DNA from: Promethearchaeota archaeon
GTDB lineage: Archaea; Asgardarchaeota; Thorarchaeia; Thorarchaeales; Thorarchaeaceae
Reading direction: 5' to 3'
Assembly (NCBI GenBank): GCA_027031765.1
Contig: JALVPN010000084.1
Coordinates: 2,693 to 15,000 of the forward strand
Length of the DNA: 12,308 nt
Of this stretch, positions 8,880 through 11,249 are shown one piece after another. The position numbers and the translations under genes are program-made. Below the pieces are notes generated by a model. The model was not told where the DNA came from. It did no database searches and worked only from the letters and a program-made list of their open reading frames with translations. How positions within the stretch are numbered: the stretch's first letter is position 1; the number at the start of each line of letters is the position of its first letter.

Positions 8880-11249
8880 GTGCACAGGTCTTCCATTCTC
8901 GTTGTGGCCCTCGTGTGCGTGACCTGCACAGGTGGAGCAGTACTCTGTTCTGGGGTGCTGACGGCACGTGCCATGCAGGTGACCACCGGGGCCGAGAGGC
9001 CTAGCACCATTGCGTCGGCACAGGCGCGGCTAGGCGACAGTAGTACCACACCGGCATGGTGGAGCGCCACTGCTGGTACCACAAGCTCTACCATATGGTC
9101 ATTCCAGACCGGGGGCTCGGTGTACTCCTCACCAGCGCTGGGGGATGTGGACGGTGACGGCGACCTGGATGTGGTTGTCGGCAGTCACGACAGCACACTG
9201 TATGCCCTTGACGGTGCGACCGGTTCGACCCTCTGGTCTTACCAGACCGGGTACTTTGTGGTGTCCTCACCGGCGTTGGGAGATGTGGACGGTGACGGCG
9301 ACCTGGATGTGGTTGTCGGCAGTCACGACAGCACACTGTATGCCCTTGACGGTGCCACTGGCTCCGTCCTCTGGTCGTACCACACGAATGGATCTGCCTA
9401 TTCCTCGCCGGCGGTGGCAGATGTGGACGGTGATGGTGACCTGGATGTCGTCGCCAGCAGCGCTGAGGGGTGGGTCTACGCTCTTGATGGTGCCACAGGC
9501 TCTGCCATCTGGACTTGCCAGATCGTAAGTCCTGCGTATTCCTCGCCTGCAGTGGGGGACATTGACGGTGATGGCGACCTGGATGTCGTAGTCGGTGGTG
9601 GCGACAACTGGTTGTACGCCCTTGACGGTGCCACTGGCTTCACCATGTGGTTCCGCCAGACCGGGGGCCGGTTGGACTCCTCGCCTGCACTGGGGGACAT
9701 CGACGGTGATGGTGACCTGGACGTTGTCGTGGGCGGCTGGGACGGCATGGTCTATGCCCTTGAGGGTGCCGGGGGCTTCATCATGTGGTCCCAACAGGTC
9801 GGGGACTGGGTGTACTCGTCGCCCGCGCTGGGGGACATTGACAGTGACGGTGACCTAGATGTCGTCGTAGGCAGTGGCGACTATCGGGTGTACGCCCTCG
9901 ACGGTGCCAGTGGCTCCACTATATGGTCCTACCGGACGGGATACTGGGTGTACTCGTCGCCCGCGCTGGGAGATGTGGACGGTGACTGCGACCTTGACGT
10001 TGTCATCGGCAGTAACGACAAGAAGGTGTATGCCCTCGACGGTGCCACTGGCTCCACCCTCTGGTCGTACCAGACCGGGGACTGGGTGTCTTCCTCGCCG
10101 GCGCTGGGGGACGTTGACGGTGACGGCGACCTGGATGTCGTCATAGGCAGCACCGACGGCGGTGTGTATGCACTGGAGGCGTCTGATAGTGCTGGCCGGG
10201 TGTACTGGCAGGGACTGGGCGGGGACACATCGTTCCAGCGCAGGGCATGCGTCGAGTACATAGATGCGGACGGCGACATGCTGTCGGACTATTCAGAGTC
10301 CCTGTATGGGACGGACAGTGAGGACCCGGACACTGACGGTGATGGCCTGCCCGACGTGTGGGAGGTCATGAACGGCCTCAGTCCTACTGATAGTGACACT
10401 GACGGTGACGGCCTGTCCGATGACTGGGAGCTGGCCAATGGCCTGGACGCGGCCGACAGCGACACCGATGACGATGGCCTGCCTGACGGCTGGGAAGTGA
10501 CATACGGACTCGCCCCAACAGACGGGGGCGACGCTGGTCTTGACCCTGACAGTGACGGCCTCACAAACCTCGAGGAGTACCAGTACGGCTGCGACCCGCT
10601 CAGCAGTGACACCGATGGCGATGGCATGCCCGATGGCTGGGAGGTCGCGAACGGCCTCAATGCGACATACTCCGGTGATGCAGCCCTTGACCTCGACGGC
10701 GACGGCCTTACCAGTGCTGAGGAGTACTCAGCCGGCACGCTGCCACACAACGCCGACACCGACGGCGACTCCTACTCTGACGGCATGGAGGTCTGGGCGG
10801 GCTCTGACCCGACCGACCCCTCTGACACACCTCCACCCTCCATCGTCCTGTATGCGCCTGTGATCGTACCTGCACTCGTGGGTGTCACCCTCGTTGCCCT
10901 GGTGCTCTCACGACACCGACTGGCATCACTTGTCCGGGCCATGTCCGCGCGCCGCGAGACCGCCGCCCTAGTGGGGGACGAGGGTGCGGTTGTGGAGTGG
11001 CTGAGAGACGACACGCCCCTCGACGGGGCAGACCCCCGACATGTCCTGCGGGACATCTACAGGCGGCACCTTGAGGCAGTGGCCTTGGTTGAGGACGGAC
11101 GGTTCGAGCAGGCTGTTGTACTGCTGGAAGGGCTCCTTGCGGAGCTCGGTTCCCGGGAGGAGCTCGGGGCGCTAGACCCAGGGGTGGTGGAGTTCGTACG
11201 CAACGAGGTCGAGGCTGCACTGTCGGTGGCCGTTGTGGGCGGACGGTAG
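8880..11249 (+). CDS. Receptor-like surface protein, paralog 2 (~789 aa), same architecture with a shorter stalk
   Basis: Start placed at GTG 8880 (MHRSSILVVALVCV, signal-peptide-like) after GGGGTGG, by homology to the start at 12161; GTG 8871 is an alternative. Eight exact 46-aa blades, short stalk, TM ~10842-10910, and a tail 83% identical (93/112 aa) to paralog 1. Confidence 0.88.
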   Translation: MHRSSILVVALVCVTCTGGAVLCSGVLTARAMQVTTGAERPSTIASAQARLGDSSTTPAWWSATAGTTSSTIWSFQTGGSVYSSPALGDVDGDGDLDVVVGSHDSTLYALDGATGSTLWSYQTGYFVVSSPALGDVDGDGDLDVVVGSHDSTLYALDGATGSVLWSYHTNGSAYSSPAVADVDGDGDLDVVASSAEGWVYALDGATGSAIWTCQIVSPAYSSPAVGDIDGDGDLDVVVGGGDNWLYALDGATGFTMWFRQTGGRLDSSPALGDIDGDGDLDVVVGGWDGMVYALEGAGGFIMWSQQVGDWVYSSPALGDIDSDGDLDVVVGSGDYRVYALDGASGSTIWSYRTGYWVYSSPALGDVDGDCDLDVVIGSNDKKVYALDGATGSTLWSYQTGDWVSSSPALGDVDGDGDLDVVIGSTDGGVYALEASDSAGRVYWQGLGGDTSFQRRACVEYIDADGDMLSDYSESLYGTDSEDPDTDGDGLPDVWEVMNGLSPTDSDTDGDGLSDDWELANGLDAADSDTDDDGLPDGWEVTYGLAPTDGGDAGLDPDSDGLTNLEEYQYGCDPLSSDTDGDGMPDGWEVANGLNATYSGDAALDLDGDGLTSAEEYSAGTLPHNADTDGDSYSDGMEVWAGSDPTDPSDTPPPSIVLYAPVIVPALVGVTLVALVLSRHRLASLVRAMSARRETAALVGDEGAVVEWLRDDTPLDGADPRHVLRDIYRRHLEAVALVEDGRFEQAVVLLEGLLAELGSREELGALDPGVVEFVRNEVEAALSVAVVGGR
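9093..10181 (+). repeat. Eight highly similar 138-bp blade repeats of paralog 2
   Basis: Trp codons every 138 bp from 9096 to 10062. Perfect 74-bp repeat at 9144-9217 and 9282-9355. Confidence 0.95.
10263..10829 (+). repeat. TSP3-like Asp-rich stalk of paralog 2 (two 22-aa single units, two 49-aa double units, flanking half units)
   Basis: DTDGDGLPDVWE, DTDGDGLSDDWE, DTDDDGLPDGWE...NLEEY, DTDGDGMPDGWE...SAEEY, DTDGDSYSDGME. Confidence 0.9.

Follow-up and report, generated by a model that had tools for sequence, protein, structure and literature searches.

A fixed blade framework and a variable loop face in a predicted surface propeller of a Thorarchaeota-like Asgard archaeon

When the blades of a repeat protein are nearly identical except at a few strongly varying positions, do those positions form a binding face diversified by the shuffling of repeats, or do they simply lie in loops that vary throughout the family? 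The question is raised by a gene, here termed paralog 2, in a stretch of 12,308 nucleotides (positions 2,693 to 15,000 of contig JALVPN010000084.1, assembly GCA_027031765.1, Promethearchaeota archaeon), which we refer to as the window. Paralog 2 is the open reading frame (ORF) 8529-11249 on the plus strand, and a second gene of the same plan, paralog 1, lies directly upstream. A first-pass annotation of this DNA had proposed that hypervariable, aromatic-rich columns on one face of its propeller constitute a combinatorial surface built by repeat shuffling, comparable to the WD repeats of fungal HET-E. On balance we favor a more restrained answer, that paralog 2 is an older, fixed member of a family of surface receptors that amplifies its blades, and that its variable face is the probable ligand surface. 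The evolutionary part of the proposal finds support in sister genes of the same genome and is not demonstrable in paralog 2. The features on which the argument depends are as follows, with columns counted from the Trp of each blade.

8880-11249, plus strand: paralog 2 gene, comprising signal peptide, eight-bladed propeller, neck, TSP3-type calcium stalk, transmembrane helix, and a cytoplasmic tail of 113 residues (from ORF and Pfam)
9087-10199, plus strand: eight-bladed propeller, predicted by AlphaFold2 model, Foldseek, and phmmer; its first strand, 9087-9107, closes blade 8
9096-10199, plus strand: eight repeats of 46 residues, with Trp codons starting at 9096, 9234, 9372, 9510, 9648, 9786, 9924, and 10062
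9114-9125, plus strand: D-to-A loop codons (columns 7-10) of blade 1, at offset +18 to +29 from the Trp codon
9252-9263, 9390-9401, 9528-9539, 9666-9677, 9804-9815, 9942-9953, and 10080-10091, plus strand: D-to-A loop codons of blades 2-8
9186-9197, plus strand: B-to-C loop codons (columns 31-34) of blade 1, at offset +90 to +101
9324-9335, 9462-9473, 9600-9611, 9738-9749, 9876-9887, 10014-10025, and 10152-10163, plus strand: B-to-C loop codons of blades 2-8
9144-9170, plus strand: DxDxDGxxD calcium-type loop (columns 17-25, A-to-B) of blade 1, at offset +48 to +74 in the other seven blades
9144-9217, plus strand: 74-bp tract of blade 1 repeated exactly in blade 2 at 9282-9355, an intragenic conversion or partial duplication

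The repeats are highly regular. Tandem Repeats Finder reports a period of 138 nucleotides over 9085-10171 (7.9 copies, 74% matches, score 855), and the eight 46-residue units align without any indel. The near-invariant framework described in the annotation is borne out, with 15 columns identical in all eight blades (S11, S12, P13, A14, D17, D19, D21, D23, L24, D25, V26, V27, Y36, A37, and L38), and the letters it gave for the variable columns all proved exact on re-translation. From blade 1 to blade 8, column 7 reads G,Y,G,S,G,D,Y,D; column 8 S,F,S,P,R,W,W,W; column 10 Y,V,Y,Y,D,Y,Y,S; column 31 H,H,A,G,W,G,N,T; column 33 S,S,G,N,G,Y,K,G; and column 34 T,T,W,W,M,R,K,G. Their entropies are 1.9, 2.2, and 1.55 bits for the D-to-A columns 7, 8, and 10, and 2.5, 2.2, and 2.5 bits for the B-to-C columns 31, 33, and 34. 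The description of these positions as aromatic-rich holds in part: Phe, Trp, and Tyr fill 15 of the 48 cells (31%) compared with 7.5% in the long ORFs of the genome (p = 1e-6), but against the family baseline, 19% for these columns over 276 blades from 81 homologues, the enrichment is only modest (p = 0.03).

The fold is assigned consistently. Matches above the respective Pfam cut-offs were obtained for Beta-prop_ACSF4 (PF13570; 2.6e-57, 195.2 bits versus a cut-off of 133), PQQ_2 (PF13360; 94.4 bits versus 27.6), FG-GAP_3 (PF13517; 7.5e-46, 155 bits versus 26.9), and FG-GAP (PF01839; 74.4 bits versus 22.1). An AlphaFold2 model (m10e86748d26a), computed from an alignment of 83 homologous propellers, has 32 strands in eight blades, with a predicted local distance difference test score of 94.7 and a predicted template modeling (TM) score of 0.92. 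Foldseek relates the model to Cake8 (6tjg, TM 0.96 by target), v31Bagel8, BamB, and YxaL, and phmmer matches 8prj at 4.7e-75. The Trp-docking motif YALDGATGSxxW is present in blades 1-7. From its motifs, the propeller combines the PQQ-type Trp-docking signature (YALDGxTGxxxW) with an FG-GAP/integrin-type calcium loop in every blade, and the DxDxDGxxD loops are putative calcium-binding sites.

In the model, all eight blades share the same order of elements: strand D (columns 45 to 4, holding the Trp), D-to-A loop (5-13), strand A (14-16), A-to-B loop with DxDxDGxxD (17-24), strand B (25-29), B-to-C loop (30-33), strand C (34-39), and C-to-D loop (40-44). Columns 7, 8, and 10 thus fall in the D-to-A loop and columns 31 and 33 in the B-to-C loop, as the annotation had predicted for its variable positions; strand C begins with column 34 in 8/8 blades. 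In a four-stranded meander, consecutive loops alternate between the two faces, and therefore the D-to-A and B-to-C loops share one face while the calcium loop lies opposite. The expected integrin-alpha-like placement of the calcium loops opposite the variable face is upheld by the meander topology of the model, which supports the six variable columns together forming one face of the disc, opposite the eight putative calcium loops. Faces were assigned from DSSP and strand topology rather than from measured exposure. This face probably contacts ligand. It could instead be the active site of an enzyme, a PQQ-dependent dehydrogenase or a lyase, given that the Pfam PQQ model (PF01011, 9.9e-11) and a lambda-carrageenase propeller (5.7e-20) also match. 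We consider such an activity most improbable, as the minimal 46-residue blades lack the long insertions of quinoprotein dehydrogenases, no conserved residue is seen on the D-to-A/B-to-C face across blades or paralogs (an alignment of specific catalytic residues was not part of this comparison), and the nearest solved relatives are designed or binding propellers, BamB, and YxaL.

The genome encodes at least nine full propeller genes of this type, and five contigs begin or end inside a propeller: C15 and C28 (at their ends), C125 and C188 (at their starts), and C162 (at both ends). C162 carries the C-terminal part of one propeller gene followed by the N-terminal part of the next, indicating that tandem arrays recur. 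The blades of the broken propellers are 76-96% identical in DNA, and at least three or four more paralogs with unresolved interiors are present.

It is in these fragments that diversification is most visible. Their blades follow the pattern WSHQTGxxVxSSPALGDVDGDGDLDVVVGSxDxxVYALDGATGxTx, and nearly all differences among them fall in columns 7, 8, 10, 31, 33, and 34. The closest fragment pairs have proportions of synonymous differences (pS) of 0.08-0.16 in the framework and of non-synonymous differences (pN) of zero or nearly zero there, while the pN of the six columns is ~0.5 (0.25 in the C125 pair), and a codon often differs at two or three of its bases. Over four disjoint sister pairs, the six-column pN is 0.456 versus a framework pS of 0.193 (Fisher p = 3e-4); for blades 1 and 2 of C15 alone, the values are 0.52 and 0.08 (p = 0.003). 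The ratio of six-column to framework change ranges from 2.4 to 6.3 in the sister fragments.

The loops of these genes also occur in re-assorted combinations. WNVY is joined to DDYR in C15 blade 2 and to GDHS in C28 blade 2; GDHS is joined to DWVF in C188 blade 2; DWVY and GDYR are combined in blade 6 of paralog 2; and YDDS is paired with DRVY (C15 blade 1) or with GSVD (C28 blade 3). The loop motifs recur partly with identical codons. A nucleotide tree of blades groups the last blades by position and the interior blades mostly by gene, with blades 6 and 7 of paralog 2 falling among the fragment blades. Near-identical sister blades that differ in few codons, by several bases each, would likewise be produced by targeted mutagenesis of the loop codons, for example by a diversity-generating retroelement. 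We find this hardly credible: a search of the 95%-complete genome for a reverse transcriptase (PF00078) was negative, while control genomes gave matches; no template repeat was seen; and the recurrence of loop motifs with identical codons in different blades fits recombination over de novo mutagenesis.

Within paralog 2 the evolutionary picture is older. Its blade pairs are 63-87% identical in DNA, reaching 80% or more only for 1/2 and 2/7, and Nei-Gojobori synonymous distances (dS) of the framework are 0.5-1.6 for most pairs (0.33 for 1/2, 0.48 for 6/7, and 0.58 for 2/7). Substitution was assessed by pairwise counts on four disjoint adjacent blade pairs, rather than by a codon site model, because recombination between blades is evident. 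The framework pN of 0.089 versus a pS of 0.463 indicates purifying selection on the scaffold, and the high dS of most pairs identifies this as selection on a family-wide motif, not as homogenization of the HET-E kind. The HET-E-like coupling of high internal identity with diversified positions, which the annotation had suggested, therefore applies to the sister genes but not to paralog 2, with its lower blade identity and lack of a demonstrable non-synonymous excess. Between paralogs, the framework is retained while the loops are not. Same-position blades of paralogs 2 and 1 are 64% identical at the framework and 8% at the six columns; across paralog 1, C27, C87, and C115, the ranges are 60-78% and 6-12%, compared with 11-15% six-column identity for off-register blades between paralogs.

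Recombination between blades of paralog 2 is recorded in the 74-bp tract shared by blades 1 and 2, which is exact, does not extend on either side, covers 37 concordant polymorphic sites, and has a length reached in 0 of 5000 permutations. Of the 28 pairs, 1/2 and 6/8 are the only ones still significant after correction for their number. The tract takes in strands B and C, the B-to-C loop between them, and the calcium loop; accordingly, the two blades have identical B-to-C loops (HDST) and different D-to-A loops (GSVY versus YFVV). Diversification by repeat shuffling is thus half right for this gene: the exchange between blades is real, but this tract equalized the B-to-C loops. Conversion exists and re-assorts the two loops, yet here it lowered diversity at one of them.

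Such repeats could also deceive an assembler, and the blades of paralog 2 or of its sisters might be chimeras of near-identical paralogs collapsed from short reads. In addition to the five or more contigs of the genome that break inside such propellers, the Logan unitigs of the source run break at the repeats of paralog 2, with no listed piece spanning the whole stretch. The unitigs nevertheless tile 8880-10300 with zero mismatches except for 21 bases (9167-9187) outside the listed pieces; a 742-nucleotide piece covers 9326-10067 and a 124-nucleotide piece bridges blades 1 and 2; and the unitig of the 74-bp repeat has a depth of 18.4 versus 7.8-9 between and after the copies, roughly the doubling expected for two copies. 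As the blades of paralog 2 are also dissimilar enough to be easy to assemble, we judge an artefact very unlikely. Repeats of the HET-E/HET-D type are polymorphic in number and order between individuals. No alternative blade order was found in the Logan contigs of the source run, a single run that is silent on between-strain variation. This run, a hydrothermal vent metagenome, is the only one in which the genomic stretch occurs. It also contains a second contig of 86 nucleotides with seven mismatches at 10038-10120 (depth 10.3 versus 8.4), including a G>A change at 10080, the first base of column 7 in blade 8, which converts Asp to Asn. This variant probably derives from a paralog, although it may be a strain variant.

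Paralog 2 belongs to a very large family. A database search returned more than 5,600 significant matches, spread over numerous phyla of bacteria and archaea. The best foreign propeller reaches 57% identity. In the collection searched, which includes no genome of the same genus, no orthologue at 90% identity or above was found, the exact sequences of paralogs 1 and 2 were absent when looked up with several candidate starts, and the cluster of the neighboring oligoendopeptidase F (PepF) has one member. The consensus of 83 propellers, WxxxTGxxVxSSPALGDIDGDGxLEVVxGSxDxxVYALxGxxGxxxW, corresponds to the fixed framework of paralog 2; the six columns are among the positions at which it lacks a consensus residue. 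Over the 276 blades of the 81 homologues, the most variable columns are 8, 10, 31, 4, 33, 7, 23, and 34. By internal framework identity, paralog 2 ranks 19th of 122 proteins. The pattern is sharper in several foreign proteins, such as P0061, with a framework identity of 0.93 and a six-column identity of 0.14. P0061, P0107, P0009, and P0010, which are foreign metagenomic or WOR-3 proteins, are eight-bladed with framework identities of 0.80-0.93, a scaffold even more frozen, and their variable columns 7, 8, 10, 31, and 33 are rich in W, Y, G, S, and D. Judged by these alignments, a fixed scaffold with loop variation on one face is normal for a widespread propeller family and is not peculiar to paralog 2. 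Our literature searches found no description of this frozen-scaffold and variable-column pattern for the PQQ/FG-GAP propeller type, and nothing pertinent on FG-GAP or PQQ surface receptors of Asgard archaea.

Several observations weigh against regarding the face of paralog 2 as a product of diversifying selection. Columns 3 (2.0 bits), 45 (2.0), and 46 (1.9), which the annotation did not list, vary like column 7 and more than column 10, and they sit in strand D at the rim; the variability of paralog 2 is therefore not limited to one face. The excess of non-synonymous change that the annotation's idea implies did not appear: the six columns change no faster than the synonymous sites of the framework (pN 0.490 versus pS 0.463, ratio 1.06, Fisher p = 0.48). 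Blade pair 1/2 alone hints at more (ratio 2.6, p = 0.07), and because the sites are nearly saturated, the test has little power in this gene. The entropy profile of the family correlates with that of paralog 2 (Spearman 0.71 over the 276 blades), and since the same columns are the most variable family-wide, relaxed constraint on the loops would look alike. As to the sister genes, their blades lie at the ends of contigs assembled from short metagenomic reads and supply few pairs, and conversion or codon bias may hold their framework synonymous sites alike, inflating the apparent ratio of non-synonymous to synonymous distance (dN/dS).

These points could be accommodated by plain relaxed constraint, in which constraint is weakest in the D-to-A and B-to-C loops of the fold and the variation in paralog 2 is neutral drift. 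The parity of loop and synonymous change in this gene, the family-wide variability of its six columns, and the many foreign proteins with a fixed scaffold and variable loops, of which P0061 is one, are all in keeping with it. Neutral drift cannot, on the other hand, give the contrast between loop pN and neighboring pS seen in the closest sister pairs. The variable cells moreover favor W, Y, G, S, and D, as binding sites typically do, and their aromatic content exceeds the family baseline. We regard drift alone as possible, though on this evidence rather unlikely.

Under the reading we prefer, in which paralog 2 is an older, settled receptor, strong purifying selection holds the propeller scaffold at the consensus of a large prokaryotic family, while the D-to-A/B-to-C face would serve as a ligand-contact surface of which each paralog has its own version. 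The gene family would evolve by blade amplification and by conversion between blades, and in its youngest members diversity at the loop positions would be maintained or driven by selection, selection being the presumed cause. Paralog 2 would carry the outcome of this diversification with no measurable signature, because synonymous changes have accumulated between its blades and its loop positions have reached saturation.

The remaining parts of the gene are consistent with a role at the cell surface.

8880-8972, plus strand: predicted signal peptide (MHRSS, a hydrophobic core, and TARA), recognized by reading the sequence
10263-10830, plus strand: neck and acidic TSP3-type calcium-binding repeat stalk (TSP3_bac, 3.7e-30, six stretches)
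10842-10907, plus strand: predicted transmembrane helix, the hydrophobic run IVLYAPVIVPALVGVTLVALVL followed by SRHR
10908-11246, plus strand: cytoplasmic tail of 113 residues, ~84% identical to that of paralog 1 and to those of two other genes of the genome
5609-8407, plus strand: paralog 1, of the same architecture with more diverged blades

The likely start of paralog 2 is the GTG at 8880, because a hydrophobic signal-like segment comes directly after it; a short Thr/Ser-rich linker separates the signal peptide from the repeats. The stalk contains six D-x-D-x-D-G units, starting at 10263, 10329, 10395, 10461, 10608, and 10755. The tail appears to be specific to this lineage. A tblastn search of its own genome found it twice on C84 and once each on C28 and C125, four genes in total, with the copies of paralogs 2 and 1 (10908-11246 and 8069-8404) ~84% identical. 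A Pfam search assigned the tail to no family, the species genomes held no relative, the Atlas gave no usable match, and a search of 1.8 billion representatives returned one near-identical fragment and weak repetitive hits (eight weak hits). A 307-residue ORF on C28 (16004-16924, minus strand), 99.7% identical to P0124, has no signal peptide and keeps only the end of the last blade, the neck, the stalk, the transmembrane helix, and the shared tail. It looks like a paralog remnant that has lost its head, perhaps through a deletion across the repeats.

Paralog 2 is accordingly predicted to be a type-I membrane protein on the surface of a Thorarchaeota-like Asgard archaeon. The genome is a 2.95-Mb archaeal metagenome-assembled genome (MAG), 95% complete, from a hydrothermal vent metagenome; an archaeal 16S model scores 820 bits in it, and the nearest relatives of the neighboring PepF are from Candidatus Thorarchaeota MAGs (65% identity). 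A third gene of the same kind begins at 12161 and runs off the contig end (12161-12308 in the window). The remaining genes of the window are housekeeping genes, encoding a polyprenyl synthetase, a thioredoxin, an asparaginase, and oligoendopeptidase F. A 217-residue ORF at 2634-3287 has no family, and its sole match, below the cut-off at E = 0.02, is to the C2 domain of the FG-GAP propeller protein ITFG1; this match is probably due to chance.

Taken alone, paralog 2 is an ordinary representative of a widespread family, throughout which the same columns vary. A bolder reading, which we offer tentatively and consider doubtful, is that the propeller genes, several of them in tandem, form a multigene receptor repertoire whose top faces are diversified by loop re-assortment under selection, with paralog 2 as one fixed specificity. 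Such a repertoire would be an extracellular prokaryotic counterpart of recognition of the HET-E type or of the variable-lymphocyte-receptor type, perhaps for partners, kin, or viruses. Asgard archaea live in close physical partnerships, and to our knowledge little is known of how their surfaces recognize anything. Integrin-like single-pass receptors with fast-changing, paralog-specific faces would provide candidates for the recognition of partners or viruses, and would extend the principle of a frozen scaffold with a hypervariable top face, established in fungal and bacterial WD40 receptors, to extracellular propellers with calcium loops.

Among known systems, the closest are the eight-bladed PQQ-like/FG-GAP propellers with solved structures: the designed Cake8 (6tjg) and v31Bagel8 (8prj), natural templates annotated as 'cell surface protein', 3hxj, YxaL, and BamB. 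They share with paralog 2 the eight four-stranded blades, Trp-docking, the SSPALGD...DxDxDG...VVxGS...VYAL consensus, and the same variable columns; unlike them, the propeller of paralog 2 sits atop a TSP3 stalk in a protein with one membrane pass and a lineage-specific cytoplasmic tail. In the head of integrin alpha, ligand is bound by the D-to-A and B-to-C loops, and the A-to-B hairpins with their DxDxDGxxD calcium loops occupy the other face. Paralog 2 resembles integrin alpha in carrying a propeller on a stalk with one transmembrane helix and a short tail, and in its calcium loops opposite the D-to-A/B-to-C face. It departs from integrin alpha in blade number (eight instead of seven), in bearing a calcium loop on all blades, where integrin alpha has one on three or four, and in its PQQ-type Trp-docking; the window contains no gene resembling a beta subunit or encoding a vWA domain with which it might pair.

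Highly repetitive PQQ/FG-GAP propellers are already on record, as are hypervariable top-face positions in WD40 receptors. The survey of Pereira and Lupas (2022, PMC9218822) includes recently amplified, highly repetitive propellers of PQQ and FG-GAP/alpha-integrin lineages in archaea and bacteria; as in our genes, blades are amplified from one unit, there is a continuum from near-identity to divergence, and interior blades cluster by gene. Its text describes amplification and contains neither the phrase 'variable positions' nor 'positive selection'. The other point of reference is the WD40 domain of HET-E/HET-D (HNWD) proteins of Podospora anserina, together with other internally well-conserved repeats of NOD-like receptors (NLRs) (PMC1805685, PMC2873952, PMC12222747). 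HNWD-type repeats are 80-100% identical within a gene at the nucleotide level (PMC12222747), a range above that of paralog 2 and only partly reached by the sister fragments. The present propellers further differ in being of PQQ/FG-GAP rather than WD40 type, and in being predicted to be extracellular and membrane-anchored rather than part of a cytosolic NLR; in addition, paralog 2 lacks a measurable dN excess. The likenesses comprise a conserved blade scaffold, a few hypervariable D-to-A and B-to-C positions, recombination between repeats, and broken short-read assemblies, and the sister fragments C15, C28, and C125 share these HNWD features, including a dN above dS.

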